DNA of 64,000 nucleotides, from the NCBI GenBank assembly GCA_027451985.1, contig DAIDHS010000001.1, forward strand, positions 97,932 to 161,931. The letters are read 5' to 3'. Of this stretch, positions 25,737 to 41,658 are shown piece after piece. Every line of letters starts with the position of its first letter. The stretch's first letter is position 1. A program made the position numbers and the translations under genes. The stretch comes from Elusimicrobiota bacterium. Lineage in GTDB: Bacteria > Elusimicrobiota > Elusimicrobia > UBA1565 > UBA9628. The notes beneath the pieces were generated by a model, which worked only from the letters and a program-made list of their open reading frames with translations, searched no databases and was not told the origin of the DNA.

Positions 25737-25787
25737 AGAGGCAGAGTCGCTGCCCTGCCTCAACTGTCGAAAAATATTTGGGAAGCC

Positions 25788-25816
25788 TTGAAAATTCAGC
25801 AAACGCCCGCCATAAT
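25788..25816 (+). promoter_or_regulatory. sigma70-like promoter TTGAAA-N17-CATAAT upstream of the 5277-aa gene
   Basis: ttgaaaattcagcaaacgcccgccataat. The -10 ends 8 nt before the ATG at 25825, which would make that start leaderless. Preceded by a weak hairpin ggcagagtcgctgcc after the upstream stop. Confidence 0.45.
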
Positions 25817-25824
25817 ATCCCGTC

Positions 25825-28800
25825 ATGCGAGGGGAATTCCGTATGGGACTAAAGGCCTGGGGAACCCTGGGCCTTTTTAATCCACCTCGGGGGGCCATTA
25901 GACTCTCTTCAGGGCAACCGCTGACCAGTATTCTATTCACATACGCGCGCATGAAAAAGGTTCTTTATAAGCTGACGGCCGTCGTGGTGACGGGAGCGCT
26001 GTTGCTCCTGACTCCGGGCATTTCCTGCTATCAAGTTCTCGCGCAGGATGTCAGCGCCGAGAGCGAGCAGAGCCAGACTCCGGTCAACATGAACTTGGGC
26101 GGGCAACTGGAAACTGTCCCGCTTGAGCAGATGGCGGTTAATCCCGCCGCAGGCGGCCTTTACCAGCTTCCCGACATTCACGTCCCGCCGTCCGAAACCC
26201 TTCCGGTTGGCGCTTCAGCAGTAAAATCCGCGGCTCAATCCGTTTCCGCGTCGGCACAGGCCGCTTCCATTCGGGCGCAATCGGTGCCCGCTGTGGAGGG
26301 TGCGCAAACCGCCGCGGCGGCTCTGCCTGAGACGCCCGCTGCCGCGGCCCTCTCTAATGGCGCCGCGTCCGTTACTCAAGGGCGCGTCGGGACCAGACAG
26401 AGATATTCCCGCGCCGCGGCTTTGTCCGCCGCTCAGGATGGGAGGCAGGCAGTTCGCCTCGGGTCTTTGGGCTGGCTTCGGAGCACCGCCGGCAAGGTGC
26501 GTAGCTGGATTAAACCCGGCGCTTCGGCCGCGAACCTCAAATTTGAGTCCAACAAGTCTTTCGACGCGGCCTACGGGAAATCGGCGGCCGTTCCGTCTGC
26601 AGGAAAATCGGAATCTTTGAGACCCGGCCGCAAGGGGCGAATCGCAAGAACCCTGGGACTTGCCGGGGCCATCGCCGTGCCCGCTGCCGCGGCCGCCATT
26701 CCGCTGCCGGCGAAGGCTGCAGCCGTCGTACACGCCGCGGCCCATTCCGGCCTCATTCATAGCGTCGGGCTGACGTTCCACGCGATTTTGACGGCCATTG
26801 GCCCCGCCGGCATCCATGCCATTTACCTCAGTATGAATGTCTTGGCCGCCGGGTTGGCCTTGCCCGAAGTCCTGCGGACGTTCCGACGCGGCAGCGCGCA
26901 TCAGGTTCCCATGGGCGAGTTGACCATGGCCGTGGTCGGCTCCGCCATCTTCGGACTCATCATCGGCCCGATGAAAGGCTATTGGGGCTGGGCCGCGCAG
27001 AATAACTATGGCGGCTTGTCCATGCTGGCCGTTCTTCCCATCGGCTGGATTTTAGGCCGCGGGGGCGTCAAAATTTTCGGCAAGCGCTTCTGGGGTCCCA
27101 TCCCGGAGCCGCAAAAAACGGAGAATCCCTCCGCGGAAAAACCGGGGCTGCTCAGGCGCATATGGAACGGCTTCAAAGATCCCGCGGTTTTGAGAACCAT
27201 CGCGGCGGCGGCGCTCATCGGAGTTGCGGCCGTTGGGTTCACCCAATTGGCCGCCGCCGTTGGCCCGGCAATTTTCCCGCCGCTCTTGAATTTCGTCGCT
27301 TCCTTGTTCCCGACTACGGCTTCGGGCATGGGTCTTTTGACGGCAGCGGTGCTTTCGGTCCCCGGCTACATCGCGCTCAAGTGGCTGCGCGGGCTTTTGA
27401 AGAGCCCGGTGTCATGGAAAAAGAAGGCGCTGCTGGGACTGCCGCTTCTGGCCGCTTTCCCGGCGATGGCCTTCTGGCTTTGGCCGATGGCCAGCGCCGG
27501 GGCCTTGCCCATGACGGCGGACAAGCTCGTTTCACTCCTGAGCGGCTTGGGCGGGGGGCTCTTCGTCTTCTTGTTCGCTCCCGAGGTCATCCGGGCGTTG
27601 ATTGTGGGTGAGGATTCCTCCAAGCACTTCAACTGGCGAACGTCGCTTATTTTCTCGGTGGCAAGCTTGGGATTCCTGATTTATTGGGGCAACCAGTATT
27701 TCGTCAACCCCGCGTCGATGGGCGTGGCCATGTCCAACATGATCCAAAACGCCATCGGGGGGCTCTTCTCGACCATCAGCTTCTTGCTGGCTTGGAAGCA
27801 CAGAAACCATAAGGTGGCGTCGGCTGCGGAGGAGAACGGTAATGCCGCCCGCGTCGCTGCGGCCGGGGAGGCCGAAAAAATCTCAAATCCCGGACAGGCG
27901 CCTCCGGATCGCTCGCCGCCCGGAGAAAGTCCGGGCGCGCCTAAAACCGAGGGCGAAAACCTCTCGCCCCACGTTTACGAAAACATCTTCGGTTTTAGAG
28001 GAATCAAGGGCCGTTCCTACGCATCCGCCGACAGCAAACTCCAGCCTCTCACCTCTCGCTCCACATCATCCCAGATCGTCGATCGAATTTCCTTTCAATT
28101 TAATATCTCTCGTGACAAAGTATTACTTATAGCATCTCGGCAAGGGATTTCGGAGGCGGCTCCGGCTGCCAGGTGGTTGGCGGTCTACGAGCGGCTCCAG
28201 AAGTCCAACTACGAGCGGTTCAAGGAGTTGGATCACGCCAAGAACGCCGGCCATGGTCTTTTTGGCGAGGCGATCCGGAAAGCCTGGGCTCGGCTGCGGG
28301 GCAAGGCGGCGCCGGACACGGCAGGGTTCCGCAGACTCGCCAACAAGACCTATGCGCCCGGCGCCAAGGGAGTGCTCCAGCGCGCGGCCGGAGTCCATCG
28401 CCTCGTAATCGGCTTCTGGATCGGCTTTGTCTACGAGTGTTTCGACTCCTTCATCCTGGGCTACTTCCGGCAGGCGATAAGCTTCCATTTCCGCCACCGG
28501 AACGAGGACTTCCTAGGCATCGCCGCTGGGCGACAAGACGAACAGGCTGGCGCCTTGTCCGAAAACGCCCTGGCCGCCGCCATCGCCGGCGTCCAGGGCC
28601 GGGGCTTGACCGCGATGGAGCGTTTCAACGCGACGGCCGTGGGGCACGCCGTGTCCGGGGCGGTCATCCGGCCGTTCGTCCACCCCCTGCTGACGTTCCT
28701 GCGCCGCCGTTTAGTCATGGCTCTCCTAAGCGCCGTCGCCATGGGGTTTTTGGGCGCCGCCGCGCCAGCCATGCCGTTTCTGTCCATTTCAGTTTTGACC

Positions 28801-31800
28801 GTTCCGTTTTTAGGGCCGCTCATTTTGCACGCGTCGCATTTCTTCTTGTTCTCGGTTGCCTCGATTCCTGGGGTAGGCCATTTCTTGCTTCCCGTCGTGA
28901 CCAAGGCGGTCAACGCCTTACTCAAGGACTTGGTGCTGGGCCCCATGCTCAACACCTACGTGCTCTCGTTCCTGATGGCGCTCACGCGGCGCCCCGTTCG
29001 GCAGTGGTTGCCCGCGCTTAAGAGCGGTTCGTTCTGGTGGGAGAGTCTAAAGACGTACTTTGGCATGATGACCATCGGCGCCGAAATCGCCGGATGCTTG
29101 AGCTATTTCGCCGGCATCGACAGCGCCATTGACTCCCACGGCTTTTATCAGCTCATCGGCAAGCACATCCATAGCCATTTCCACCTATTCCACGCGCTGG
29201 GCTCGGCGGTGGAAAGCCCCAAGGGCCAAAGCCTCATTCCCTTCGGAGGCGCCATCACCTGGGGCAACGCCCTGCTCTACCACTTCCAAAACGCCATTCA
29301 CTTCAACATTTCCAACTGGATCGCGGTCCACCTTAATCCCGCGGCGCTGGCTCAGGGGGGAGCCCACCGCGCTTTCGAGATGGGGATTTCCAATCCCCTC
29401 CAGAGGGACTTCCAGTTCAATGCCAAGGACTACTTGGCTTCACCGAAGCAGGCTAAGGCGCGCCTCAAGCAGATGGACTCCAACGCGAGCTTCTCCGAAC
29501 TGAGAAAGGAACTGGCCGCTGCCAAAGCCCGGGAACAGGCGCTAAGCTCCGCGGAGGGCCAAGCACAGGACCAGATTCTAAAACTCAAAAAACAACGCCG
29601 GCCGATTACGCCTCAGGAAAAGGCAGAGTACCAGGCGCTATTGAAACAGCTTCAACGTCAGCGGGAAAACGTCTACGCCCAGAATAAGCTCGCGGAAATG
29701 CGCGACTTGAAGGGGCGCAACCCGAAGAGCGACCTTCTCCTGAAATTAACGGCGCTGAAAAAGCAATACGCCGGCCGGCTCAACCCCAAGCCGACGGACA
29801 AGACGGACTACTGGCACGATCTTGGAGTCAAGGAGTCGCAATACGCATCGATGGCCGCCCGGCTCTCGCAGATTGTCCAACCGGCCGGTGGGAATCCGCC
29901 GGACCCAAATGGCGCGGCGCGTTCTTCGGCAGCCAGCGGGGCCGCGTTGGCGGCTGTCAGTGCCGATGCCAGCAAAGACCTTGACGCCATTAAAAGTTCG
30001 ATTCAAAAAATAAACACCAAGCGGGAGGCTTTAAAGGGCGAACTTCTGCGCAAACAGGCCCTTGAGAAGCTCATGGACGCGGAAGCCCGCCTGCGCCAAA
30101 TCGCGCTGGACCAGCGCCGGGACGGCAAGGCGATGCAGGGTTTTCATCAGAGCCTCTCGCAGTTGGACTCGGTCATGGGACTGGCGCTGTCCCAGAACGA
30201 GCTCAACGCCGCCTTGAAGGCCATCAACCAGATGCAGACGCTCATCGGCAACAAGGACGCGACCATCAACCAATCCATCAGCCAAGATCAGGCCAACCTC
30301 CAACAGATTCAAAATCTGCTTAATCAGGAGCAGCAACAGTGGCAGCAGCAGGTCACCCAGCAGGTCAATTCGGACAACCAGGCGCAGAGTGACATGAAGT
30401 CGACCCAGGGAGAAGTCGTCAGCGTCATCTCGTCAGTCCAGACGTTCAGCCAGAGCGAGAAGAACCTCATCGCGAACATCAACACTACGGACGGTGGCGC
30501 CAGCGGCAACGCGCTGACTGAGTACGCCCGCCGCCTTGCGCTCATCCAAAACGGAACCATCGCGCAGTGGGAAAATTCGGGCGGCAATCCCAACGTGACC
30601 TTCACGATGAGCCAGCTAAACGGCTACCTCCAGCAGATTTCCGCGGGCATTCAAGAGGCCCAGAACGGCCTGCAGACGCTTGAGAAGGCTCCGCAAAATT
30701 TCGCGGAAACGGCCATTCTGGAGGTACCAGGGCCGGCGGTCAATGTGCCGCCTAATCCAAGTAAGGCGGATATTCTAAACATCTTGTCCCAGCGCCAAAC
30801 GTATTGGCAGAACGAGCTCAATAGCTACGAGAGCCTGCAGACCACCATCCGGGAAATGGGCGATCCGAACAACCACGCCATGACGCAGAACGTGTTCGGC
30901 GATTCGGAGCCGCAGTCCCTGCCGGTTTGGAAGAGCCAGGAGCAGGGTGTCCTGACCCAGGATCAGACCCAGATCGGCAAGGATACCCAGCAGATGGATC
31001 AAATGGCCGCCGCCGTCAACGCGGCGTTCGGATCCCATCTTCCCATGCTTTCCGGCCAGTCGCTGACCCAACTGCAGAGCGAGGTGCAGAACTACGCGAA
31101 CGATTTGACCGCCCTCAAGATGCCCTCCGGGACGGATCCCAAAACCGTGGAAGCCAAGATGAACTTGATCAACTTGGCATATCTGGTTTCGGACTTGGGC
31201 AACCAGGTCATCAACGCGAGCGTCGCTCAGCAGACGATCACCACCATCGACGGCGCCATGTCCACGACGCTGCCCCAGGCGGCGCAGGGCATCGATGCCA
31301 TCGTGCAGATGGTCAAGAACATCCTGGCGGACGAGCAGATGGACGTGGCCTACGTCAACGGCGACCAGGAGACGCAGCAGCAGGTTTTTACCCGGAAGGA
31401 AAACCTGCTGCAGAACGAGATTCTGCCGTCCCTGCAGCAAGCGCAGAGCATGCTGCAAAATGATCTAATTCCCTTCCAGCAGCAGACGATCGCGTCCTAT
31501 CAGCAAAGCAACTCCACCACGGGCTATTACTACCTATACACGACCAAGCAGTCGTTCCTGACGCAAATCGAGAGCCTCTATAACACCACCATGCCGTGGT
31601 CCATCGAGACGTTCGGGGGGGTGTCGGGAGACAAGGCGGGTTCCCTGCAGGACGTCGCCGCGTGGAAGACCCAGCTGCAGGGCTATTTGACGGGCTACAA
31701 GGACAGCAGCGGCGTCGAGCAGCAGGGCCTTGAGCAGGCTCTACAGGAAGCCAACGACCGCATGACCACGAACTTCAAGGGCAATTCCCAGGACCCTGCG

Positions 31801-34800
31801 ACGGAAACGGTCTACGGCGAGGTGCAGCCCTACAGTCTGCCTGACAAAATCACAAAGTATACGGCGGAAATGCAGACCCGCGTTAGTCAGCTCAATCAGA
31901 ACGACGTGAAGATCAATCAGATGCTGGAGGAGATTAAGACCCTTTCCAACGGACAATACGACTTGACGCAGTATCTGTTGCCGACCGGAGTGGGGACAGA
32001 TGCCGCGAGCGTCGCCAAGATTCAGGCCCTGATCAACGCGAACACCCTGCCTAGCCTGGGATCGGCCCTGCAGCAGGTCGCCAACGAAGCGCTGGCGGCT
32101 TCCGGGAGCACCAACATCAACATCGGCGGCGGCAACGGCAGCGTGCTCTCCGGCACCCAGCCGTCTCCCACCATTTCGAACGACCAGAAAATCGCCCTTT
32201 TGGCATCGCAAATCGGCCCCTTGCTGGCGCCGGCGAGTCAGAGCGTCACCAACCCGTCGGCGGGGGACACCACGGACGCGGTCGCGCGCTACATGTACTC
32301 GAACAGCGTCATCCAGGCCGCCCAGAACGGCGAGCAGTTCATCAATTCCACCGTCTATCCCTTCGTCCACCAGGGCATCCAGACCATCAACGACGCCGTC
32401 AACGACGCGAACAACCGCATCGCCTACATCAACTCGGGCGGAACGAGCATGACTCCGCAGCAGATCTACGATCAGGAGCTGAAGATTTTCAACGAACTCG
32501 GAGGCTTCCTGGATCAGGCGCAGAATTTCTTCGGGCAAAAGAGTAGCTTTGATTCGCAGTCCTTCAGCACGATTTCGAGCATCCTCAACTACTACCAGTC
32601 CTTGGAGACCATCGACCAGTCCGGCATCACCGCGGCCCAAGGCCAGTTGCAGGCGGACCAGACCATTTCCCAGGCGCTGCAGGCGGAGCAGACCAAGCTC
32701 CAGGGCCAGCTGAGTGAAATAAACGGCTGGCTGTCTCAGCTTAACGATCCGCACGACAGCGCCCTGCGGCGCACCAGCGACGCGATTTCCGCGATCATGG
32801 ACCAGACCCGGCAGGTTTTGGAGCAGAACATCAAATTCAAGGACCTGCAGAGCCAGCTGCGCGATTCCGATCAAATCATCCAATCCCAAACGCGCGAGCT
32901 TGAGGTTAAGCAGAAGAATCTGCAGTCTCTGATCGACGATTATGAAAAGAAGGCCGAGGGTCAGCCCTTGCCGCCGGCCGTTGCCCAGCAGGTGAAGGAC
33001 CTTAAGTTCGGGCAGGGTATGTGGGAGCAGGGCGGCCCCGACGGCAGCTATGTGGTCGTTCCTAAGTCCAAGTACCCTTCCTTCGTGCGGGCTCTCCTTA
33101 AAACTATCGCGCCGCAGGATTCCAACGACGCCATCGAGCAGATCGCCCAAAACCTCATCAGCAACCCCCAGAGCCTGATGAGTCTCATCCCAGGATCCCA
33201 AGTCATGAACTTCGGGAACTCCGCTGACGGCTTTTATATGGTCTACCAGACCAACTTGTCCATTCCAAACGGCGTTTCCACGGGCAATTCGGTCACTCTG
33301 GGCAACGTCGCCAGGATTTTCGGCAATAACATAAGCGTCGAGGGTTACCAGTTCGAAAGTCCGCCGGAAAGCCCATCGGGCGGCGCCAGCAACGCGCCGT
33401 GGGGGGACAAGGGCGTGGGCGTGCAGGTCGAGTCTCTGCAGGGCAAGAATTGGGTCAACTACCTGAACATCGACCTGCACCGCTTTGGCTTGAGCGTCCC
33501 GAACAACGACACCATGGCCGCGCAGGTCCAGCAGGACCGCATTCTTGTTTTCGACGACTATGCCATGATGGCCCTCAACGGCAAGCTCTACATCGGCTTG
33601 GCAGGTTTCGGAGACGGAGCGATTCATGACCCCAGCGGCAATCCCTACTACTATGGCGGCAATTTCAAGACCGCGATTCAAATGACTCCCGTCATTAGCT
33701 TGACGGCCCAGCAACAGGAGCTCTTTGCCAACGATCCGAGAAGCTTTCTTGAGAACGTGAACCTTGATTTTACGGGCAACGACCCCAGCTTGAATCAGAA
33801 CTTCGCCATCGCCGCGCAGGGAGACAGTAAGTCCTTTTCGCGCACCAAGCTGGGCACCAGCATAGACGTGGCCCAATGGCTCGCAGGCAATAAACAGAAG
33901 AGTTCGGACGCCTTTACGCTTGACCTGTATTATGACCGAATCCATGGGACGGACGACATCTCTCAGAATGCTTTGGGGGCCTCCGTCATAAAAGGATTTA
34001 CTCTCTACCGCGATAACGGCAAACCCTGGCTCAACATCACCAACAACGCTAGCGGCGAAGCCGGGCAGAAATACGACATGGCCTCGGATGACCTGACCAT
34101 CAACCTGCCCAACGGAATCGTCTTGAGCGGCAACGGACAGATTATGGGTTCCGAACGCGCCTACTACGGGCAGATTGCGAAAAAAATGACCGATACCAGC
34201 CAAATTCAGCTGGGCTACGGTTCGCCGGTCATTGGGATGAACAACCGGCTCAATCTGACGTTCGACTCGTCCTTCAGCCTGCGGCAGATTTGGGAAACGG
34301 TCAGCCGGCAGGCGGCCGATGATCTTCAGGGCGGGCAGGCTCTTAAGCCTTTCAAGAGATCCCTGGCGGATTTCCTCTCGGCCAACTCGGGCGACACGGC
34401 CGCCGCCGAACTTAAAAAAGTCTTCGATCATTACGCGGCCCAGGAACTCGTCGATTCGGACGCCATCGGAGATTTGTCCAAGCAAATCGGGGATTTGCAG
34501 AAAGCCGGTGCTTTCATGGATAACACGAAGGTGCAGTCCGTGTTGGGATTTACCAGCGGCGCCGTGTCCAATGACCCGACGGAGTTGGCCGTCGGCGGCG
34601 GGCCTGTGGTCGGCACGGAAACGACGATGACCATCTCCCGGACGCAAAAGGCGCTCATCGCGGACAAGACGGCGACCTTAATCCGGGACGGTCTGCAGCT
34701 TCAAGACACCATGGTGGGCGCCGCGCAGAAGTTTCAGGGCGCGGTCAAAGACGTGATTGAGGCTGAGGGCTCGCTGCGCATCGCGCAGGCCGCCGAGGCC

Positions 34801-37800
34801 CGCCTGCCCGCCGGCCCGCAGCGCGACGAGGCCCTGGTTCAAGCCGATCGGGCCCAGGCGCGACTCAATGAGGCGATCATCCGCTTCAACGTCATGACCG
34901 GCCGGCCTCCTGGCGCCCAATTTCCCTTGCAGGACCTCAGCGGCGCGACGCTTGAGGACTTGATGGCGCAACTAAAGCAGACCATCACCATGCCGGCTGG
35001 GCTGGCCAGGGTCCTGCACCAGGTCGATCCGCAGAAACTGCAGGCTCGCGTGGGCTCCAATCCCTTCAACATCCTGGATAAAATTCCGTGGGTCGAACGG
35101 ATGACTTTGGGTGTCGGCACCCAGCTTCAAGACAGCATGTCGAGCCAGCTTTTGGGCGCCGGCGGATCGGTCACGCTTCCCATCTACGACCCGACCTCTA
35201 AGGCGAAGAACCATGCCTATCGGCTTGAGAACAAGGCGGCCTTGGCGGAAATTTCCCAGGTCTATGAGGATCACGCGCGAGCTGTGGAAAAGGAGCTTTT
35301 TGAAAGCGGCTTGGCTGGCGACCAAAGCAAAACTCTGGGACCGGAACTGACGCAGGCTTCCAATAATTTAAATGAAGTGTCTGCGGCGTACCGCAACGGG
35401 CTGGCCGGGCCGGCGGAGCTTCAAAAGGCGTACCAGACCTGGATGTGGTATTACGACGCCTACAACGAAGCTCTGGCGACGAAGACTTTGGCCGACGCCT
35501 CCGCGTCTTTAGCGGGGAATTTCTTGTCGCCCGGCCAAGGCTGGAAGGGCGCGGCGGGTCTCATGGGGCCGGATTCTCCGCCGCTGGATTTGACCTCCCT
35601 GCCCCAGGCCGCGTCTTTGGCGGCCGCCCATTCCGGGTCTCTGGAGGAAATGGCGGCACGGGAGCAGGCGGCCCAGGCCATGACTCAGGCTGCAAGCCAC
35701 CGGATTCAGAAGGCCTCGCTCGACTTGTCTGTGGGAGGCAATCTCGTGGCCAGCGGAACGGGGTGGATCCCCAGCATCGGCATGACGGGTTTCCCGGTCA
35801 TGCCGATTTTCAACTTCAAGTTCGAACCTTCGGACTTGCGGGACTTGGACCAAGCCCAACACAAGGCCGAATCCAAATATTATGCCGCGATCAAGGGCAA
35901 GTTGCAGGCGGACTTGGCCTTTGAAATTTATCAAAACGTTCTTACTTACGAGACGTCGATTTCGGAATTGACGCAGTTAAACGACGTCGTCATCCCTCAG
36001 TTCGCAAAGGAGGCGCAGACCGCTTCCGCCGGTCCTGCCGAGGCCGCGGCCCGGCATCGGCTGGACCAAGCGAAGCTTGAGCGCGACGGCGTTTTGTACG
36101 CCGGAGCCCAGGCGCTGGCTTCGGTTAACATGCTTTTGGGTCGGAGCCCTTCCTCCCCTCTGCGTATCGACATTTCCCCGAAGACGGCGACCTTCGATCT
36201 CCAGAAACAATATAAAGCAGAGTCACCCGCGCAGATTCAAGATAAGGTCCTCGGGGCTCAGGTTCGGATCGCACGGACGGCCGAGACCATCACGGACCGG
36301 GGAGAGAAAATCCAGGAGTTGAGCACCGAGCCTGTGTCTCTCGTTGTGCGAGCCGCCGGGCGCTTGCTCCGGACGCTTAGCGGCAACGGCTTGGGTGACC
36401 CCGATTTAAAGCAACAGGCGTTGCTCGAAGACCTCAAAGCCCAGCGGGCGCTGGAGTCTTTCCGGAAAAACGTGCCGGTTGAGCGGGCTCAATTGGAGCA
36501 GCGGCTCGCGGTCGTGACAGACGCCATCTCGAGAACTTCTCCAGAAGGCTCATCCGCCGTCCAATTTATCGATCTCCAGTCTCAAAAAATGCTTCTGCAG
36601 GCCCAGTTGGCGAGTTTGCAAGGCATCGGCACGGAGGCTCCGATAGGCCAAGCCGCTCCTGGATCCGGCGCGCCGTCCGCGATGCCCGATAATTTCGCGG
36701 ACTTGCGCAACCGCCTCGAAACGGCGGAGCAGGGCGTGACGGCGCCGCCAGACGTTCAAGGTGCCGGCTTGGCCAATCCTCAAGTATCCAAGGCGCAACC
36801 CGAGTCCTTTACCCGCTTTTACTATTTGCGCCAGACTTTAGGCAAAACCCAGGTCCACCAGGGCTACTTGGAAAGCTGGCTCGAGGCCAGGCTGCGTTTC
36901 AGCGGCACGTCGCCCAGAGAGCTTCTCCGCCTTGAAAAGCTCCGGGAAGACGAGGAGGATCAGGACTATATGGCCGCGCAGTCCGCGGCCGCAGCCAAAG
37001 GCGACATCCTGGCGGCCGACTTCGCGGCCAAAGTGCAGACTTTCCGCTACATGAAAAAACACATCGGCGCCAAAGACCAGCGCCAAACGGACGAGGCGCT
37101 CACAAGCATACGCCACGCGCTCAAATCCGACGCGGTGCAGATCGCCGCGCTTCTGGGCCTGCCATTGGATGCGGCGGGTAAAGCGGGCGCGACGGACGAA
37201 ACGATGAAGGCATTGATGGCGCTGGTGCCCGAACAAACGGAAAATGCCCAGGCTGTCGGCCAAGATCTTATCAATCGATTGAACGATCAGAGCTTTGCGC
37301 ACATCGAGCAGATGCTGTTCAACGGCCAGGCCCCGATTCCCGGGACTAATTCCGCCGCGGCTTTGAGCGACATACGGACCGACATTCTGCTTAAGCACAT
37401 GGCCTCCTCAAACATCACTCCGGTCGCGGCTTTCGGCGTCTTTCGCGGCCAGCCGGTTGAGGGACTTTTCCTCAAGACCCCTGATCCGACGACCATCGAG
37501 GCGGGGCTTGAGAGCGTGCTTTCCAAGGACATGCTGGCCAAACTCAAGGCTAGCGGAGAACTGCAGGACCTCACCCTCCATTTGAGCCAGCTCATGCAGG
37601 CCGTGCATGACGACGCGCAGACGTTGGAGAGCCAGCGGCGGCTCATTCAGTCCGCCCAGGCGCAGTACGAGAATCTGCTCGCCCTGGGAACCCCGCAGGC
37701 CTCCGCGGAACTGCAGGCCGCCCAGCACGAACTTATCCAGGCTTGGCTCGACTTCAACAACCAGGCGGCGAAATCTAAGTCCGATGTCGTCGAGCTCTCC

Positions 37801-40800
37801 GGTGAAATCCAAGCGTTGGGTTATTCTCCAAGCCAAGAGGGGACTCTCCCTTCCTCCGACATAAGTCTCGAAGCGCAGCCCGCGCGCGAACTTTCTCGGG
37901 GCATGATGGCGTACTGGGCCGAGCGAACGGCGGCTTCAGATTTCGCGGCTCAAGAGCAGAATATCTTGGACGGATTTGGCCCATTGCTTTCTCAGGATTT
38001 CAAGGAGCGATTGGCCTCGGACATTCAATCTTGGAGCCAAGCCCGCGCCGAGGCTCGGCGTCTGCGCGCGGGCGATCTCCCAGCCGTTAAGAAAGACGCG
38101 CTTTTGGTTCAAAACGATGCGACGGGCAAGCAGGAGGCCGTGGAACAGGACTTGGCCGCCTTGGTCGACGCTTTGTCCTCGGCCGGGAACTCTTCCGCGG
38201 CGGCGTCCGGCGACCTGAAGCAGTTGCTGGTCTTCTTGCAGAATGATATGGATGTCCAAGCCAACGCCACGAAGGATCAGCGCCTAAAATACAACAAGAG
38301 CGTCGAGGAACTGCGCAAGACGTATTGGGACTCGCTGCGCCCCGGCTTGCCGCCCAAGGTCGCCGGAGCGTTCACGCGGCTCGAAGACCTGCAGCATAGT
38401 CTGCGCGGAGATTGGCAGAGCCTGCTCGATAGCTATATGGAGAACGGCTCCGGCACGGAGCCGTTCATCATGAAGGACGTTCAGCTGGATGCCTATCTTA
38501 AGGACCAGCACGCCTTCAACCAGGAGATCGTGGCTCTGCTGAAGTCCGACGAAGTGCGGAAGGATCCGGCCGCTCTGGAAGGCCTTGAGTCGCTCTACGA
38601 CGTGCGCACGGCCCTGGACCAGGAGATTGCGGTCGCCCGCTACGGCCGCGGCATGGCGGCCTTGGACGCGCTCATTGAGCTCGATCAGGTGCGTCTTGAC
38701 GCGGCGCGCGGGGAGAACAAGGGGCCGGATGCGATTGCGGCGGCGGTTCAAAGCCTGCAAACCCTCGAAGACATGAAGCAACGCTGGCTCAAAGGGCAGG
38801 ACTCGCTCCAGCCCGTCTACGCCGTGGTCCCCATTCAGAGCGACGGCCAGGACATGAACGTGGTGACGGAATGGCTGACCCAGAAGGAGATCGACGCCCG
38901 CCAAGCGGACGGGCAAGATGAGCCGCTTAAGCATGGCGGGACCATCACCGAGGAGGGCGGCAAGTACTATCTTAACTCCGCGGGGGGAGGGCGATTCCTT
39001 ATTCGCTCAGGAGTGGACCAACTCCAGAGTGGCGTGGACGCCGCGCAAGCAGCGCTGGATCAGAACCAGAGCGTCATCGATTTGGGCTTTAAAGCCGATT
39101 TCGTGTCCGATAAGTTTATCGATGGCAGGCCTGTGAGCCAGTACTCGGTGCAACAAGTCTTCGGCTTGGTGCCGCCTCCCAAGGCTGACGTCGGGTCCCC
39201 GCCGCCTGAACAGCCCCTGTTCCTGTTCTATCAAGTTTCTGGCGCGCCGAGCCTGGGAACGGGGGAAAACGCCGACGCCTTCAGTCGCCTCTTGCCCGAG
39301 GCCATCGCTTTGACGGAAAGCCCGAAGGATTACGCGGTTTACGTCTACACTGGGCCGGAGAAGCTTTCTTATGACAATTTCCCGACGCTCCAGAGCCTTA
39401 AGGATTCCCCGGAATACAAGGACGTGCAGAAGCTGACCCTGACGCCGACGGGTGCCTCCGACGCCTCGATGCTGGCCCGCGGCAGGGGCCTGATCTCGCT
39501 GCGCAAAGGGTGGATCGCGCTCAAGCTCAATAGCTATGGCTTTGCGCTGGACGGCCAGAATCTCGTGAAGGTGTACCAGAGCCGCGATGAGTTCGACGCC
39601 TCGCAAGAGCGGCTGGAGAACGCCAAAGACAATCTTGCCGAGGCCCAGGCGGCTCTTAAACGAGACAGGGCGATCAAAGATGCGGAAAAAAATAAATTCG
39701 ATTCCATTGAGGCCGAGTACAATACTCAACTCGCGAAGTATCAAAAGGCGCTGAACTCCCGGAAACAGCAGTTGGAGAAAATGGCCTTAGGCGATTTGTC
39801 CCAAAAGCCCGGCGAACCCGACGCTTTTTATAAAGTCCGCGTGGAAAGCAAGGTTGACTTCCTCATCAAGGGCGACGCGAAATACCGGGCCATCATGAAA
39901 AATCTTGCTCCCTACGCAAAGAAATTCGATGCTGAGAAGCTCAAGAACGACGCGGCCCAGGCCCAGGCTGATGACGACCAGAAAGCCGTGGACAAGGCCA
40001 GTGCTGTTTTGGCCGACGCGCAGAAATGGAGCTTATACAGGACGGACAATCTCTCGCTGGAATTGGCCGGAGATGGGACGCTCGTGGCCGTCAAGGCGTC
40101 CCCGGCTTACGGTGGAAATTTGCTGAATGAAACTTTGGCCGACGAAGGTCAGAGCGTCCCCGCGAACCCCGTTCTTGTTAATGGGGCCCTTTACGCCGTC
40201 GTTCTAGATGGCGCAGGCCGCGTGGTCAAGACATTCCAAACTTCGGATGCGGTGGAGAAGGCGGCCAAGACTTGGACGATGGAAAGCGTGAGTATGAACC
40301 CGAATGGCGCCGCAGTGGAAAGCGGCGGACGAATCATGACTAACTATCGTCTGGATTATTATGAGGACCCAGCCACCAAGCTGCCAGTTGAGCTCAGCGA
40401 GCGCTACGTGCGCGATCGGGTCGAGCACGACAAACGCAGCCTCTTCTACCGCGAACATTGGGGCTTGATGCCGCAGAATTGGTTCAGCTTGGTCATGAAC
40501 GTGCCGGATCAGATCGTCGGGACTCCCATCGAACTAGCCGGACGGGATCCGAACCAGCAGCATTATCTGGGGCGCGTCAATATGAACCACAGCGAGGGCG
40601 GGGAGACGCAGCATCACGGATTTTTCCGCAACGCCCTGGGTTTCGTGGACGTGCTCGACCTGTTGCCGGACCCGGTGAAGATTTACAACGACCCCAGCCA
40701 GTTCCCCGCGCAATCCCGAATTAGTTCCCCAGTCATGCCGGGCCAGGACATCTACTCGAAGTCCCTGCGCAATCCTAAAGACGGAGAGAACGTCCATTTC

Positions 40801-41658
40801 GGCGCCAAGGCCGTGGCCCAGGGCTTGCAGTACTCTCTTGAGGATTTAACCGACGCCCAGCAACAGACGCTGAGCTATTTCCGGGGCGGCTACGAAGATT
40901 TGATCATCAGCCGCATGCGAGGGCGTGATGGGACGTATGAGGAATCCCAAAGGACGGCCCGCAGCGGCGGCGGTGCCATTGCGAGCAAGCTCGAGGATCA
41001 GGGCACCCGAGACGAGGCTTACGATCCGCTTGCGGCGGCGGACGCCCGTTCTGCCATGCATGGAGTTACGGAGACGGCCAGCCCTGATAATGTCTTGACC
41101 GAACGAGTGGAACGGCGCGTGAAAATTCAGCTTGGGGCCAAGCAGTATAATCAGGCGGCTGATGGGTTTAAGGCCTATTCCAAGGATATAAATGGTGCGA
41201 TTAGCAAAGAGAAAAAAGAGCGAGAGGGGCTTGCAGGATCTTTAAGCGCTGAGCAGGCGGCTTTAGAAAATGCTTTAGCCGCCAGGAATGACGCGCAATC
41301 GAGCCTGGATAAGACATGGTCCAAGTACCACGCGCTGGAATTGCGCATGGGGGCGGAAAAAGCTTTGGAGCAGGGAATTGTCTTGTGGCAGAAGCGCGCT
41401 AATGATTTGGCGGCGCAGTTCAAGACGGCGCAGGCTCAAGCCGACACCATGAGGAACCAGCTTCAGCAAGCCGCTGGCCTCGCCGCCGCGAGCCGCACCT
41501 CGTCCCGGCAGGCCGCCGCGACTTCGTTCCCGTCTCCGGCGCAGCCAAAGACGCCGATTTGGCCGTGGATCTTTTTCTTGGGCGGACTCGTCAGCCTTTT
41601 GGCGGCGGCGTGGGAAGCACTGCGCCATAGAATATTACGCGCCAAGCGTATTGACTAA
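25825..41658 (+). CDS. giant 5277-aa protein: N-terminal polytopic membrane domain, ~4000-aa Gln-rich helical region with a central beta-rich island, and a C-terminal TM anchor; alternative start at 25951 places the signal peptide at the N-terminus
   Basis: One uninterrupted frame of 15.8 kb. From M43 (nt 25951) the sequence is MKKVLYKLTAVVVTGALLLLTPGISCYQVLAQD. More than 15 hydrophobic helices lie in aa ~270-1150. The following ~4 kb of protein is Q/A/L/N-rich helical low complexity (QEQQQWQQQVTQQVNSDNQAQ ...). A beta-strand-like block sits at nt ~33200-34300 (GNSVTLGNVARIFGNNISVEGYQFE...TLDLYYDRIHG...TFDSSFSLRQIW). The C-terminus PIWPWIFFLGGLVSLLAAAWEALRHRILRAKRID is a tail anchor. Confidence 0.7.
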   Translation: MRGEFRMGLKAWGTLGLFNPPRGAIRLSSGQPLTSILFTYARMKKVLYKLTAVVVTGALLLLTPGISCYQVLAQDVSAESEQSQTPVNMNLGGQLETVPLEQMAVNPAAGGLYQLPDIHVPPSETLPVGASAVKSAAQSVSASAQAASIRAQSVPAVEGAQTAAAALPETPAAAALSNGAASVTQGRVGTRQRYSRAAALSAAQDGRQAVRLGSLGWLRSTAGKVRSWIKPGASAANLKFESNKSFDAAYGKSAAVPSAGKSESLRPGRKGRIARTLGLAGAIAVPAAAAAIPLPAKAAAVVHAAAHSGLIHSVGLTFHAILTAIGPAGIHAIYLSMNVLAAGLALPEVLRTFRRGSAHQVPMGELTMAVVGSAIFGLIIGPMKGYWGWAAQNNYGGLSMLAVLPIGWILGRGGVKIFGKRFWGPIPEPQKTENPSAEKPGLLRRIWNGFKDPAVLRTIAAAALIGVAAVGFTQLAAAVGPAIFPPLLNFVASLFPTTASGMGLLTAAVLSVPGYIALKWLRGLLKSPVSWKKKALLGLPLLAAFPAMAFWLWPMASAGALPMTADKLVSLLSGLGGGLFVFLFAPEVIRALIVGEDSSKHFNWRTSLIFSVASLGFLIYWGNQYFVNPASMGVAMSNMIQNAIGGLFSTISFLLAWKHRNHKVASAAEENGNAARVAAAGEAEKISNPGQAPPDRSPPGESPGAPKTEGENLSPHVYENIFGFRGIKGRSYASADSKLQPLTSRSTSSQIVDRISFQFNISRDKVLLIASRQGISEAAPAARWLAVYERLQKSNYERFKELDHAKNAGHGLFGEAIRKAWARLRGKAAPDTAGFRRLANKTYAPGAKGVLQRAAGVHRLVIGFWIGFVYECFDSFILGYFRQAISFHFRHRNEDFLGIAAGRQDEQAGALSENALAAAIAGVQGRGLTAMERFNATAVGHAVSGAVIRPFVHPLLTFLRRRLVMALLSAVAMGFLGAAAPAMPFLSISVLTVPFLGPLILHASHFFLFSVASIPGVGHFLLPVVTKAVNALLKDLVLGPMLNTYVLSFLMALTRRPVRQWLPALKSGSFWWESLKTYFGMMTIGAEIAGCLSYFAGIDSAIDSHGFYQLIGKHIHSHFHLFHALGSAVESPKGQSLIPFGGAITWGNALLYHFQNAIHFNISNWIAVHLNPAALAQGGAHRAFEMGISNPLQRDFQFNAKDYLASPKQAKARLKQMDSNASFSELRKELAAAKAREQALSSAEGQAQDQILKLKKQRRPITPQEKAEYQALLKQLQRQRENVYAQNKLAEMRDLKGRNPKSDLLLKLTALKKQYAGRLNPKPTDKTDYWHDLGVKESQYASMAARLSQIVQPAGGNPPDPNGAARSSAASGAALAAVSADASKDLDAIKSSIQKINTKREALKGELLRKQALEKLMDAEARLRQIALDQRRDGKAMQGFHQSLSQLDSVMGLALSQNELNAALKAINQMQTLIGNKDATINQSISQDQANLQQIQNLLNQEQQQWQQQVTQQVNSDNQAQSDMKSTQGEVVSVISSVQTFSQSEKNLIANINTTDGGASGNALTEYARRLALIQNGTIAQWENSGGNPNVTFTMSQLNGYLQQISAGIQEAQNGLQTLEKAPQNFAETAILEVPGPAVNVPPNPSKADILNILSQRQTYWQNELNSYESLQTTIREMGDPNNHAMTQNVFGDSEPQSLPVWKSQEQGVLTQDQTQIGKDTQQMDQMAAAVNAAFGSHLPMLSGQSLTQLQSEVQNYANDLTALKMPSGTDPKTVEAKMNLINLAYLVSDLGNQVINASVAQQTITTIDGAMSTTLPQAAQGIDAIVQMVKNILADEQMDVAYVNGDQETQQQVFTRKENLLQNEILPSLQQAQSMLQNDLIPFQQQTIASYQQSNSTTGYYYLYTTKQSFLTQIESLYNTTMPWSIETFGGVSGDKAGSLQDVAAWKTQLQGYLTGYKDSSGVEQQGLEQALQEANDRMTTNFKGNSQDPATETVYGEVQPYSLPDKITKYTAEMQTRVSQLNQNDVKINQMLEEIKTLSNGQYDLTQYLLPTGVGTDAASVAKIQALINANTLPSLGSALQQVANEALAASGSTNINIGGGNGSVLSGTQPSPTISNDQKIALLASQIGPLLAPASQSVTNPSAGDTTDAVARYMYSNSVIQAAQNGEQFINSTVYPFVHQGIQTINDAVNDANNRIAYINSGGTSMTPQQIYDQELKIFNELGGFLDQAQNFFGQKSSFDSQSFSTISSILNYYQSLETIDQSGITAAQGQLQADQTISQALQAEQTKLQGQLSEINGWLSQLNDPHDSALRRTSDAISAIMDQTRQVLEQNIKFKDLQSQLRDSDQIIQSQTRELEVKQKNLQSLIDDYEKKAEGQPLPPAVAQQVKDLKFGQGMWEQGGPDGSYVVVPKSKYPSFVRALLKTIAPQDSNDAIEQIAQNLISNPQSLMSLIPGSQVMNFGNSADGFYMVYQTNLSIPNGVSTGNSVTLGNVARIFGNNISVEGYQFESPPESPSGGASNAPWGDKGVGVQVESLQGKNWVNYLNIDLHRFGLSVPNNDTMAAQVQQDRILVFDDYAMMALNGKLYIGLAGFGDGAIHDPSGNPYYYGGNFKTAIQMTPVISLTAQQQELFANDPRSFLENVNLDFTGNDPSLNQNFAIAAQGDSKSFSRTKLGTSIDVAQWLAGNKQKSSDAFTLDLYYDRIHGTDDISQNALGASVIKGFTLYRDNGKPWLNITNNASGEAGQKYDMASDDLTINLPNGIVLSGNGQIMGSERAYYGQIAKKMTDTSQIQLGYGSPVIGMNNRLNLTFDSSFSLRQIWETVSRQAADDLQGGQALKPFKRSLADFLSANSGDTAAAELKKVFDHYAAQELVDSDAIGDLSKQIGDLQKAGAFMDNTKVQSVLGFTSGAVSNDPTELAVGGGPVVGTETTMTISRTQKALIADKTATLIRDGLQLQDTMVGAAQKFQGAVKDVIEAEGSLRIAQAAEARLPAGPQRDEALVQADRAQARLNEAIIRFNVMTGRPPGAQFPLQDLSGATLEDLMAQLKQTITMPAGLARVLHQVDPQKLQARVGSNPFNILDKIPWVERMTLGVGTQLQDSMSSQLLGAGGSVTLPIYDPTSKAKNHAYRLENKAALAEISQVYEDHARAVEKELFESGLAGDQSKTLGPELTQASNNLNEVSAAYRNGLAGPAELQKAYQTWMWYYDAYNEALATKTLADASASLAGNFLSPGQGWKGAAGLMGPDSPPLDLTSLPQAASLAAAHSGSLEEMAAREQAAQAMTQAASHRIQKASLDLSVGGNLVASGTGWIPSIGMTGFPVMPIFNFKFEPSDLRDLDQAQHKAESKYYAAIKGKLQADLAFEIYQNVLTYETSISELTQLNDVVIPQFAKEAQTASAGPAEAAARHRLDQAKLERDGVLYAGAQALASVNMLLGRSPSSPLRIDISPKTATFDLQKQYKAESPAQIQDKVLGAQVRIARTAETITDRGEKIQELSTEPVSLVVRAAGRLLRTLSGNGLGDPDLKQQALLEDLKAQRALESFRKNVPVERAQLEQRLAVVTDAISRTSPEGSSAVQFIDLQSQKMLLQAQLASLQGIGTEAPIGQAAPGSGAPSAMPDNFADLRNRLETAEQGVTAPPDVQGAGLANPQVSKAQPESFTRFYYLRQTLGKTQVHQGYLESWLEARLRFSGTSPRELLRLEKLREDEEDQDYMAAQSAAAAKGDILAADFAAKVQTFRYMKKHIGAKDQRQTDEALTSIRHALKSDAVQIAALLGLPLDAAGKAGATDETMKALMALVPEQTENAQAVGQDLINRLNDQSFAHIEQMLFNGQAPIPGTNSAAALSDIRTDILLKHMASSNITPVAAFGVFRGQPVEGLFLKTPDPTTIEAGLESVLSKDMLAKLKASGELQDLTLHLSQLMQAVHDDAQTLESQRRLIQSAQAQYENLLALGTPQASAELQAAQHELIQAWLDFNNQAAKSKSDVVELSGEIQALGYSPSQEGTLPSSDISLEAQPARELSRGMMAYWAERTAASDFAAQEQNILDGFGPLLSQDFKERLASDIQSWSQARAEARRLRAGDLPAVKKDALLVQNDATGKQEAVEQDLAALVDALSSAGNSSAAASGDLKQLLVFLQNDMDVQANATKDQRLKYNKSVEELRKTYWDSLRPGLPPKVAGAFTRLEDLQHSLRGDWQSLLDSYMENGSGTEPFIMKDVQLDAYLKDQHAFNQEIVALLKSDEVRKDPAALEGLESLYDVRTALDQEIAVARYGRGMAALDALIELDQVRLDAARGENKGPDAIAAAVQSLQTLEDMKQRWLKGQDSLQPVYAVVPIQSDGQDMNVVTEWLTQKEIDARQADGQDEPLKHGGTITEEGGKYYLNSAGGGRFLIRSGVDQLQSGVDAAQAALDQNQSVIDLGFKADFVSDKFIDGRPVSQYSVQQVFGLVPPPKADVGSPPPEQPLFLFYQVSGAPSLGTGENADAFSRLLPEAIALTESPKDYAVYVYTGPEKLSYDNFPTLQSLKDSPEYKDVQKLTLTPTGASDASMLARGRGLISLRKGWIALKLNSYGFALDGQNLVKVYQSRDEFDASQERLENAKDNLAEAQAALKRDRAIKDAEKNKFDSIEAEYNTQLAKYQKALNSRKQQLEKMALGDLSQKPGEPDAFYKVRVESKVDFLIKGDAKYRAIMKNLAPYAKKFDAEKLKNDAAQAQADDDQKAVDKASAVLADAQKWSLYRTDNLSLELAGDGTLVAVKASPAYGGNLLNETLADEGQSVPANPVLVNGALYAVVLDGAGRVVKTFQTSDAVEKAAKTWTMESVSMNPNGAAVESGGRIMTNYRLDYYEDPATKLPVELSERYVRDRVEHDKRSLFYREHWGLMPQNWFSLVMNVPDQIVGTPIELAGRDPNQQHYLGRVNMNHSEGGETQHHGFFRNALGFVDVLDLLPDPVKIYNDPSQFPAQSRISSPVMPGQDIYSKSLRNPKDGENVHFGAKAVAQGLQYSLEDLTDAQQQTLSYFRGGYEDLIISRMRGRDGTYEESQRTARSGGGAIASKLEDQGTRDEAYDPLAAADARSAMHGVTETASPDNVLTERVERRVKIQLGAKQYNQAADGFKAYSKDINGAISKEKKEREGLAGSLSAEQAALENALAARNDAQSSLDKTWSKYHALELRMGAEKALEQGIVLWQKRANDLAAQFKTAQAQADTMRNQLQQAAGLAAASRTSSRQAAATSFPSPAQPKTPIWPWIFFLGGLVSLLAAAWEALRHRILRAKRID

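Follow-up and report, generated by a model that had tools for sequence, protein, structure and literature searches.

What does a bacterium do with a single gene of 15.8 kb? We asked this of a locus in a 64,000-nt stretch of an Elusimicrobiota genome (the window), where an uninterrupted frame of 5277 aa with zero internal stops occupies positions 25825..41658 (these and all other coordinates refer to the + strand unless stated otherwise). A sequence-only reading had proposed a giant protein pinned in the membrane at both ends, with ~4000 aa of Gln-rich helix around a central beta-rich island. The existence of the giant frame was borne out: it is intact, and its orthologues fall in the same length class. 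Independent assemblies from many samples contain the same intact frame of 4,600-5,650 aa, colinear throughout. In concordance with these, four mine-drainage runs yielded Logan contigs that tile the gene and show zero indels and zero joints, so that the integrity check found no break; the contigs are short and of low depth, and show an absence of contradictions and no more. The suspicion that the frame is not a single gene but an artefact, either of chimeric assembly or of high GC keeping a frame open by chance, can draw on the source genome being a MAG in 107 contigs and on the long spurious antisense frames that high GC yields nearby, e.g., 31741..34647 (-), but it is effectively refuted by the end-to-end colinearity across independent assemblies, the unbroken four-run contigs, and conservation at the protein level (38-73% identity among full-length relatives). 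The giant gene is genuine and conserved within one Elusimicrobiota class.

The first 42 in-frame codons (25825..25950) are probably a noncoding 5' leader. We take M43, at nt 25951, as the likely true start because the N-termini of orthologues align from this residue, the equivalent leader in a same-genus orthologue (L034) is closed by a stop ahead of the ATG, and a sigma-70-like promoter site (TTGAAA-17-CATAAT, 25788..25816) sits between the stop of the upstream gene, P0002, and the giant's likely start. The site has 10/12 consensus matches, and the region holds three such sites versus 0.4 expected.

The giant was present in 55 of 401 Elusimicrobiota genomes, including 39 of the 47 within the window's own family, and the protein family is confined to the class Elusimicrobia. 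From aa 700 onward, the 20 intact orthologues (4,600-5,650 aa) can be aligned with hardly a gap as far as the C-terminus; conservation was scored on an alignment of 21 sequences. There are also shorter paralogues (~3,700-3,900 aa), which retain aa 1250-5125 and a signal peptide only, with both membrane anchors missing. That they keep the core suggests that the core is a periplasm or outer-membrane unit to which anchors were added. Scans with Pfam, NCBIfam, and PADLOC gave nothing above noise, and no part of the giant had a sequence relative in Pfam, NCBIfam, or the PDB, the last queried by individual segments as well as by the profiles A2, A4, and A5.

A Kyte-Doolittle scan located the membrane-associated parts at the two ends: the first 1,100 aa hold 15 peaks, aa 1055-5244 none, and aa 5245-5266 one. 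The protein opens with a signal peptide (aa 43-73, 25951..26043; hydropathy peak at aa 50-68) whose h-region ends in TPG, followed by VLA|QD. Equivalents with an h-region ending in (T/S)PG were found in all 20 full-length orthologues and also in short and distant paralogues, in agreement with the signal-like opening segment that had been placed at nt 25951. The remaining N-terminal peaks split into two clusters, at aa 274-600 and aa 860-1054. The first (~8 peaks, 26644..27624; defined by hydropathy and alignment gaps) is variable or absent in relatives, being 74-90% gapped against P0007 and having an occupancy of 0.34-0.66 in the 21-sequence alignment. The second falls within a conserved N-terminal membrane module (aa ~715-1170, 27967..29334) that consists of a soluble part followed by four to six hydrophobic helices and has invariant motifs (alignment A6). 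Conservation is limited to the second cluster, and a polytopic domain is not a universal feature, given the variable first half and a whole paralogue group that lacks both anchors. At the other end, a transmembrane segment (aa 5243-5266; Kyte-Doolittle peak 1.77) and a basic tail occupy 41551..41655. Of 20 long orthologues, 19 end in such a hydrophobic stretch with R/K residues clustered behind it, and the remaining one is truncated by a contig end; the short paralogues lack this feature. The proposed tail anchor therefore stands, as does a giant held in the membrane at both ends, since hydropathy shows the N-terminal signal/TM region and the C-terminal TM segment to be conserved.

The membrane module is lineage-specific. 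An exhaustive HMMER search of 1.84 billion representatives returned 56 proteins only, nearly all of them giants or giant fragments and none a small or annotated relative, and the module was found in 24 of 36,145 genera. Pfam found nothing in the unrelated giants that share it. The C-terminal region (aa 4090-5240, 38092..41544), delimited by conservation and mostly helical, is common to the giant and the short paralogues (28-34% identity) and includes a strongly conserved domain at aa ~4840-5060 (nt 40342-41004), for which a profile search for stand-alone relatives recovered only fragments from the same family. Neither the module nor the C-terminal region gave a Pfam or PDB lead, and ESM Atlas scores of 0.81-0.82 were uninformative for both. 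Counting these two parts, ~3,000 aa of the giant are without a relative of known structure or function.

Between the anchors, the body of the giant is not a fiber. A helical linker (aa 1200-1400) and a Q/N/S/T-rich region (aa 1400-2440), together at 29422..33144 and recognized by composition, are conserved and almost gapless, had no match to PDB profiles, and contain an internal duplication (aa ~1680-1860 and ~1981-2220; hhalign self-match E 1.9e-13). Gln makes up 10-16% at aa 1250-2500 only, versus 4-10% elsewhere in the giant. P+G content is 7-17%, and the longest P/G-free runs are 19-69 aa. A crude heptad scan of our own placed ~320 residues (6%), in six segments of 35-104 aa each, above the 99th percentile of shuffled controls, a result with which short coiled coils remain compatible. 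Within the 1,690 aa modeled with AlphaFold (aa 2400-4089), helices are at most 68 residues long and interleaved with beta-hairpins. The picture of ~4000 aa of Gln-rich helix, forming a coiled coil hundreds of nm long, thus gives way to a conserved succession of compact modules, helical and beta, that aligns nearly without gaps.

The central beta-rich block fared better. AlphaFold predicts ~18 barrel-type strands (AF2 DSSP) in the beta island at aa ~2470-2860 (33232..34404), with individual strands of 5-15 residues, most of 8-15, at aa 2471-2819 and at low confidence (pLDDT 30-74). This is the most conserved stretch of the giant in the 21-sequence alignment, and it was found in 33 of 36,145 genera. 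VIA comparison matched it to outer-membrane barrels only (porins, ushers, BtuB, FadL, and Sam50; Z 9-10.7), which supports the earlier suggestion of an outer-membrane-type center.

Downstream of the island, aa ~2890-4100 are predicted to adopt a TolC-type fold. This outer-membrane-factor-like (OMF-like) region (aa 2890-4089, 34492..38091; AF2, VIA, Foldseek) was covered by a second model, built from 51 sequences (pLDDT 71.8, pTM 0.68). It consists of six units at a spacing of 163-215 aa, each with a beta-hairpin, a long helix, and a return helix; the hairpins lie at aa 2901-2938, 3092-3121, 3294-3333, 3497-3501 (degenerate), 3660-3689, and 3865-3885. Model 1 matched OMFs in Foldseek (E 2e-5, probability 1.0, TM(target) ~0.6) and in VIA (Z 13-14.4 over aa 2949-3445), spanning nearly whole OMF chains. 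With model 2, VIA returned 29 OMF entries in two registers at Z 13-16.4, the next unrelated match being at Z 9.2; 237-344 residues were aligned, more than 300 for 26 of the entries, and the matches cover OMF chain residues ~10-440. The top 39 Foldseek hits were exclusively OMFs (probability 1.0), followed by a cliff to E 0.24. Sequence profiles point weakly the same way for part of the region, with hhalign probabilities of 88% for R1 against R3, 81% for R3 against OEP, and 78-81% for the better matches to the genome's own OEP proteins (58-81% overall). Only repeats 1-4 gave OMF sequence or fold matches; repeats 5-6 resembled neither OEP nor the remaining repeats in sequence and drew no OMF match of their own in VIA. 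The Pfam OEP family (PF02321) had no match in the giant at E<=0.1 (hmmscan), and scanning the complete genome in six frames with PF02321 found ~14 canonical OEP genes, none within the giant. On the strength of the models, the giant's predicted TolC-like duct is probably built from six fused repeats in one chain, which may close on themselves as a single barrel. A literature search for single-chain or pseudo-trimeric TolC found none with the terms tried. The sequence-only reading had named a conserved globular enzymatic fold in place of a fibrous center as an outcome that would refute it; a conserved non-fibrous fold of this kind is indeed predicted, but it is that of a channel and not of an enzyme. 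From the earlier idea of a giant tether, ruler, or conduit, the conduit is favored by this predicted duct fold beside the beta island, and the long coiled coil falls away. A shared fold does not by itself establish function.

We also noted that the ~18-strand beta island sits beside a TolC-like barrel that may already be complete, and counted this against the layout proposed below, together with the low model confidence of the island, the degenerate fourth hairpin, the unmatched repeats 5-6, the missing Pfam OEP signature, and the lack of a recognizable energy source.

The neighboring genes offer further clues. Directly upstream lies P0002 (18354..25736), a 2,460-aa protein with a signal peptide, central hydrophobic helices, an ATPase-like region, and a toxin-type C-terminus. 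The sequence-only reading had seen in it a SecA-like motor. Pfam and NCBIfam yielded only a weak generic ResIII match at aa ~1620-2270 (E 7e-6), indicative of an SF2/ResIII-like ATPase, and a type I restriction R-subunit fragment (E 0.0016); a phmmer search of the PDB returned no SecA, and we rejected that identification. The C-terminal domain (aa 2376-2456, 25479-25721) resembles PDB 8ey4 ("PT-VENN domain-containing protein"; E 4.6e-23), for which we found no citing paper, and is of polymorphic-toxin type. A same-genus orthologue (G291) has Pfam CdiA_C at this position instead (E 2.9e-20), an exchange of the domain between congeneric species. Downstream of this same-genus gene lies a 138-aa ORF; the window holds no immunity-sized ORF. 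P0002 has no known trafficking or pre-toxin domain, and a search for longer proteins with its C-terminal domain found none. Judged by its sequence, P0002 resembles a giant polymorphic toxin that also carries an SF2-type ATPase, and its toxicity is putative.

Linkage between P0002 and the giant is recurrent and incomplete. The P0002 ATPase domain lies within 10 kb of the giant in nine of 24 genera, versus zero at random places. A P0002-like gene adjoins the giant in G238, G090, and G072, and in G190 and G377 the two are on separate contigs. Further upstream of both giants, an 861-aa bitopic membrane protein (g861, 12813..15398; a single hydrophobic segment at aa ~56-73) is conserved in other genera. 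Its homologues share contig and strand with a P0002-like gene in G377, G090, G238, and G072, and the order g861, P0002-like gene, giant is kept on one contig in the last three. A dCache-HAMP-PAS histidine kinase (41695..43866; Pfam) begins 36 nt downstream of the giant, and a homologous kinase follows the giant in nine of the 20-kb loci. Family scans found no HlyD/MFP, ABC, RND, or pump-type MFS protein in the giant or among the genes at 9955-45272, and no ATPase domain was recognizable within the giant itself.

Two other candidates for partners were set aside. The adjacent MotA/MotB/FliG-TPR cluster is conserved, but in five other genomes it is found on different contigs or 130 kb off; P0003 (872 aa) was unmatched in four of five genomes and marginally matched in the fifth (one query).

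How might these parts work together? We propose, tentatively and at a little under an even chance, that the giant is a single-polypeptide envelope-spanning machine whose most likely job is the export or surface delivery of large substrates. The topology, transport activity, and cargo that we infer would be as follows. After Sec-dependent entry directed by the signal peptide, the module at aa ~715-1170, with the optional hydrophobic cluster, would hold the N-terminal end in the inner membrane, and ~1,300 aa of compact helical, Q/N-rich domains would traverse the periplasm. The island at aa ~2470-2860 would form an outer-membrane beta-barrel-type domain, and the six tandem units of hairpin, long helix, and return helix (aa ~2890-4100) a TolC-like exit duct, so that one chain would contain the full set of 12 strands and 12 helices for which TolC needs three protomers. 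The final ~1,150 aa would re-cross the periplasm to the C-terminal TM anchor, leaving the basic tail in the cytoplasm. Large substrates would thereby be exported across the outer membrane, with P0002 the best candidate for cargo or partner. The partial P0002 linkage (nine of 24 genera, with separate contigs in G190 and G377) is an observation that counts against this explanation.

A bolder extension, which we consider unlikely, is that the locus represents an undescribed Elusimicrobia secretion or delivery system, in which one 5,000-aa chain would be the whole trans-envelope apparatus, from inner-membrane base through periplasmic body and outer-membrane barrel to a single-chain, pseudo-trimeric TolC-like duct, and would work with a 2,400-3,100-aa SF2-ATPase giant whose C-terminal toxin domains are exchangeable; the anchor-less paralogues would then be a second, outer-membrane-only version.

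The strongest competitor to an export machine is a structural tether or spacer that staples the outer to the inner membrane and sets the width or integrity of the periplasm, with no transport, which we regard as doubtful yet as having a real chance. Conserved membrane anchors at both ends of an outer-membrane-type center are what such a staple would have, no motor or transporter domain was found in the giant, the toxin-like gene is only partly linked, and near-universal presence in the window's family (39/47 genomes) is as expected for a housekeeping envelope component. Against this, the short paralogues retain the entire core with neither anchor, so tethering cannot be the function of the core; a passive strut would hardly call for a TolC-type duct fold; the body does not form a coiled-coil rod; and no SLH, OmpA, LysM, or other peptidoglycan-binding domain was detected.

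If export is retained, the number of chains per channel has to be considered. Several giants, e.g., three, could form a barrel wider than TolC, with the Q-rich and C-terminal parts as an MFP-like periplasmic cage. Known OMFs are all trimers (PMC8277102), OMF matches are limited to repeats 1-4, and the additional ~18-strand island hints at a barrel surface beyond the needs of a single 12-strand pore. We nevertheless judge such a homo-oligomeric mega-channel distinctly improbable: six repeats correspond to exactly three protomer-equivalents, and a single-chain pTM of 0.68 argues for a self-contained fold.

Less probable again, to the point of being a long shot, is a surface adhesin or S-layer-like protein in which aa 1400-2440 would be an exposed passenger and the barrel its anchor or translocator, in the manner of an autotransporter. 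The composition of that stretch (R+K ~4-6%, Q+N+S+T ~40%) does resemble that of secreted or surface proteins, and it lies directly N-terminal to the barrel-type domain. But its N-terminal end is tied to the conserved inner-membrane module, so a passenger would need two outer-membrane crossings; moreover, no adhesin, Ig-like, cadherin, or autotransporter family was detected, and proteins exposed at the surface are not usually conserved so strongly and so free of gaps.

We finally compared the giant, read as an export machine, with known systems. Available text from surveys reports Elusimicrobiota to be enriched in proteins of >5,000 aa without COG assignment (PMC11573180; bioRxiv 10.1101/2023.11.21.568195). 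The present giant belongs to that uncharacterized set; as far as the available survey text goes, counts are reported rather than architectures, and no TolC-like or double-anchored architecture is described. The giant would offer a first structural handle on these "huge proteins", which the same text presents as enriched yet unannotated.

Tethers of the OmpM/SlpA type combine an outer-membrane beta-barrel with a long periplasmic helical stalk that reaches an inner layer. The giant would likewise pair a barrel-type domain with long periplasmic helical parts, but it has neither an SLH domain nor a continuous coiled-coil stalk, and is anchored instead by inner-membrane TM segments.

CdiB/CdiA/CdiI-type systems provide a parallel for the gene pair. 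P0002, too, is a giant with an exchangeable toxin-type C-terminus, and the gene for a large predicted outer-membrane protein adjoins it. The differences are that P0002 and its neighbors show no TpsB/POTRA, haemagglutinin repeats, VENN motif region, PAAR, LXG, or Rhs; that P0002, unlike CDI toxins, carries an SF2 ATPase and membrane helices; and that the candidate outer-membrane partner is TolC-like, whereas the CDI partner is Omp85-like. The pairing with a toxin-like giant suggests a testable route of interbacterial toxin export in an uncultured mine-drainage lineage.

The textbook TolC-type duct is an obligate trimer, assembled from small protomers and docking onto pumps that other genes encode. 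In AcrAB-TolC, MacAB-TolC, and HlyBD-TolC, an inner-membrane part, periplasmic helices, and a TolC-type duct follow the same logic that we predict for the giant, spanning both membranes continuously (PMC8277102). Those assemblies are multi-protein, whereas the giant would unite all parts in one polypeptide; neither its membrane module nor its periplasmic domains could be matched to a known transporter or adaptor family, and it has no recognizable energy-coupling domain. In the canonical OMF, three protomers with two structural repeats each make up a total of 12 strands and 12 helices (PMC8277102). The giant's unit matches that repeat (a beta-hairpin, a descending helix of 43-66 aa, and a return helix, ~200 aa in total), and its aa ~2945-3600 superpose on nearly whole protomers of TolC, OprM, CusC, SilC, CmeC, MtrE, and VceC (PF02321). 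The giant is predicted to share the fold of OMFs and lacks the Pfam OEP signature. OMFs are stand-alone protomers of 430-500 aa with two repeats each, assembled as trimers; the giant has six repeats internal to one chain of 5,277 aa. Unlike OMFs, it carries an ~18-strand beta domain ahead of the TolC-like region, has no adjacent membrane-fusion protein or ABC/RND/MFS pump gene, and bears inner-membrane anchors at both ends of its own polypeptide. If this reading is true, six OMF repeats, a second barrel domain, and anchors of its own would amount to a new way to build an envelope-spanning conduit, and nature would have supplied, in one chain, a version of a fold that is of much interest to medicine.

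The giant gene occupies a single open frame of 5277 codons at 25825..41658 on the forward strand; upstream of it lie two ORFs (2,460 and 872 aa), and downstream a histidine kinase. It probably starts at nt 25951 (M43), because all orthologues open at the equivalent methionine with a signal peptide, the 42-codon leader closes in a stop codon in the same-genus orthologue, and a sigma-70-like site lies at 25788-25816 (forward strand). A search of 5.8 billion proteins returned four full-length relatives (4,772-5,225 aa, 38-73% identity), including a hypothetical protein recorded at NCBI under 'Elusimicrobiota bacterium'. The central region was present in 55 of 401 Elusimicrobiota genomes (six-frame search), including 39/47 in the window's family and 9/10 in a sister family, with more distant copies in a third. 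In a census of 36,145 genera, the conserved membrane module near the N terminus occurred in 24 and the central beta island in 33, essentially all in class Elusimicrobia. All 20 fetched orthologues were intact (4,589-5,646 aa), and together with the query they gave a nearly gap-free alignment from aa 700 to the end (column consensus 45-77%); Logan contigs from four mine-drainage metagenome runs tiled the gene without indels or joints. The gene is real, as a 15.8-kb single frame, and that the frame is an artefact is barely conceivable. Long antisense frames also run over it, up to 968 aa in the window (31741-34647, minus strand) and more than 4,000 aa in GC-rich relatives (L035-L051); these arise from high GC and codon bias and are not genes.

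The membrane topology predicted from Kyte-Doolittle hydropathy comprises a signal-like segment, hydrophobic helices in two clusters (aa 274-600 and aa 860-1054), a stretch free of hydrophobic peaks (aa 1055-5244), and a C-terminal hydrophobic segment (aa 5245-5266) followed by a basic tail. This agrees with the signal-like opening (25951-26043, forward strand) and tail anchor described in the sequence-only reading: Orthologues also open with a signal peptide, and 19 of the 20 long ones keep the terminal segment and its R/K cluster, the remaining one being cut off at a contig end. Its N-terminal hydrophobic helices stood only in part; both clusters are there, but the first is variable (missing from P0007, for example, one of the proteins compared), and the conserved element is the membrane module (aa ~715-1170), which carries invariant motifs. 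With HMMER, the module was found in only 56 of 1.84 billion representative proteins, nearly all giants or giant fragments. Four other giants (P0048, P0049, P0054 and P0057; 6,182-7,727 aa), in which no Pfam domains were found, have only this module (query aa ~723-1166) in common with the window's giant, and it seems to be an inner-membrane base that can be reused in different giants.

In the giant, its paralogues and the upstream neighbor P0002 (25951-26043; 18354-18434; L034-L073), the h-region of the signal peptide ends in (T/S/F)PG, and a probable A-x-A-type cleavage site, cut between A and Q or between A and E, lies 7-9 residues farther on. This pattern may be a lineage-specific sorting signal. 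Past its signal peptide the giant has an Ala/Ser/Pro-rich stretch (aa 45-295), to which a 1,554-aa frame elsewhere in the genome (L002, G000:C3:55139-55849) bears a weak resemblance (30% identity, E 1.6e-6) that is probably low-complexity similarity.

The proposed ~4000 aa of Gln-rich helix or coiled coil did not survive. Gln enrichment is limited to aa 1250-2500, a part that contains an internal duplication (aa ~1680-1860 vs. ~1981-2220, E 1.9e-13), and in a crude, home-made heptad scan ~320 residues (6%) scored higher than the 99th percentile of shuffled controls. P+G makes up 7-17% of every 200 aa, and stretches free of P and G reach 19-69 residues at their longest. Conservation without gaps across 4,500 aa points to compact domains, unlike fibrous spacers. 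The P+G content, the few heptad residues and this conservation speak against a coiled-coil rope.

Family libraries and PDB sequence searches recognized no part of the giant. An AlphaFold2 model of aa 2400-3599 (35-sequence alignment; pLDDT 65, pTM 0.54) predicted ~18 strands of 5-15 residues, mostly 8-15, at aa 2471-2819, followed by beta-hairpins alternating with helices of 55-68 residues. The beta island (aa ~2470-2860) resembled outer-membrane barrels only (porins, ushers, BtuB, FadL, Sam50; VIA Z 9-10.7), at low model confidence, which fits the beta-rich, possibly outer-membrane-associated block noted from sequence. The significant Foldseek matches of the model were outer-membrane factors (OMFs), namely TolC, ST50, SilC, OprM, CusC, CmeC, MtrE and VceC (probability 1.0, TM(target) ~0.6), and VIA-align gave Z 13-14.4 across aa 2949-3445, covering nearly whole OMF chains.

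A crude, home-made secondary-structure profile based on the alignment showed hairpins about every 200 aa as far as aa ~3870, and we therefore modeled aa 2890-4089 with 51 sequences, paralogues included (pLDDT 71.8, pTM 0.68). The second model contains six units, each a beta-hairpin, a 43-66-aa helix and a 23-41-aa return helix, with hairpins at aa 2901-2938, 3092-3121, 3294-3333, 3497-3501 (degenerate), 3660-3689 and 3865-3885. The best 29 VIA entries were all OMFs (Z 13-16.4, two registers; 237-344 residues aligned, more than 300 in 26 of them) and the next fold scored Z 9.2; the first 39 Foldseek matches were likewise all OMFs, before a cliff to E 0.24. The OMF signal in the sequence itself appears weak but consistent: In profile comparisons, repeat 1 resembled repeat 3 (88% probability, E 3e-6) and repeats 2 and 3 resembled the genome's own OEP proteins (58% and 81% probability), with no similarity seen for repeats 5 and 6.

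Many genomes hold, beside the long form, a second paralogue of ~3,700-3,900 aa (L055-L067) that aligns with giant aa ~1250-5125 and has a signal peptide, with the membrane module and C-terminal anchor both missing. Distant relatives in another family (~3,500-3,800 aa; L068-L071) have the same build; a search with aa 2400-3400 showed the long form only in the window's genome. The core, made up of the Q-rich region, barrel, TolC-like region and C-terminal domain, is therefore a predicted periplasm/outer-membrane unit, and the window's giant is the version with an inner-membrane anchor at either end.

The best-supported reading, at slightly less than an even chance, is a single-polypeptide, envelope-spanning assembly. 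The chain would run from an inner-membrane base through periplasmic helical domains to an outer-membrane barrel domain, then through a TolC-like duct and a periplasmic return to the C-terminal anchor. It would probably serve in export or surface delivery, and P0002 is a candidate cargo or partner; support is far stronger for the architecture than for this function. A protein anchored in this way could be a passive tether, a doubtful reading that both the anchor-less paralogues and the duct fold weaken. The canonical OMF is a homotrimer with two repeats per protomer, 12 strands and 12 helices in all (PMC8277102), so six repeats in one chain would equal exactly one complete duct. That count, together with the high pTM of the single chain, suggests a duct closed by one chain, and a wider, homo-oligomeric channel is unlikely. 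More improbable still is a surface-displayed passenger formed by the Q-rich part.

As to the candidate partner in the proposed export assembly, P0002 (18354..25736) opens with a signal peptide, carries hydrophobic helices in its center and matches SF2/ResIII weakly; no test run bore out the idea of a SecA-like motor next door. Its last ~80 residues (25479-25721) match PDB 8ey4, a chain of 'PT-VENN domain-containing protein' (E 4.6e-23). In the same-genus orthologue (L034:3-1175), identity to P0002 is 81% across the 218 residues compared (aa 2106-2323 of P0002), up to ~140 residues before the end; from there its C terminus is not 8ey4-like but matches Pfam CdiA_C (E 2.9e-20), and a candidate immunity ORF of 138 aa comes next (L034:1180-1596). 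Judged from these sequences, the conserved body, exchanged C-terminal domain and small ORF are a polymorphic-toxin hallmark, and P0002 appears polymorphic-toxin-like. No immunity-sized ORF follows its toxin-type domain at 25737-25950 in the window, where no frame exists but the 42-codon leader, in frame with the giant and stop-closed in the sister genome. No known trafficking domain was found in P0002, though it does have an SF2 ATPase and membrane helices.

A P0002-like gene lies directly upstream of the giant in three other genomes (G238, G090 and G072) and, in 9 of 24 genera, no more than 10 kb from the membrane module, versus 0 at random places. Farther upstream, these clusters also conserve a bitopic protein of 861 aa (12813..15398, forward strand), which has a Lys-rich N terminus, a single TM segment and a body rich in G/S/A/N/Q, and for which no family assignment was obtained. 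In four other genera its first ~480 aa recur, at 37-51% identity, upstream of the P0002-like gene; three of these genera have the giant on the same contig. A dCache-HAMP-PAS histidine kinase (41695-43866) begins 36 nt past the giant, with homologues downstream of it in nine other loci, and a LysM/glucodextranase-B-domain protein (43863-45272) overlaps the kinase stop codon. We rejected as part of the locus a divergent MotA/MotB/FliG-TPR cluster (2673-9627, minus strand) encoding MotA/ExbB-like, MotB/OmpA-like, 476-aa unknown, FliG_M/FliG_C-TPR fusion (665 aa; 52-68% identity across five genera) and TPR proteins, which is conserved yet unlinked to the giant in other genomes. Flagella are not known as a trait of the lineage.

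Two surveys note an abundance of unannotated proteins >5,000 aa in Elusimicrobiota (PMC11573180; bioRxiv 2023.11.21.568195), and we found no description of the giant's architecture in the literature. Its TolC-like region is predicted to resemble OMFs in fold and working. Unlike OMFs, it lacks the Pfam signature (a Pfam OEP search found ~14 canonical genes in the genome, this region not among them), it is not a stand-alone trimeric protomer, and its locus has no adjacent pump or adaptor genes. On these three differences we place the region as a variant of the TolC kind, outside membership of the OMF family.
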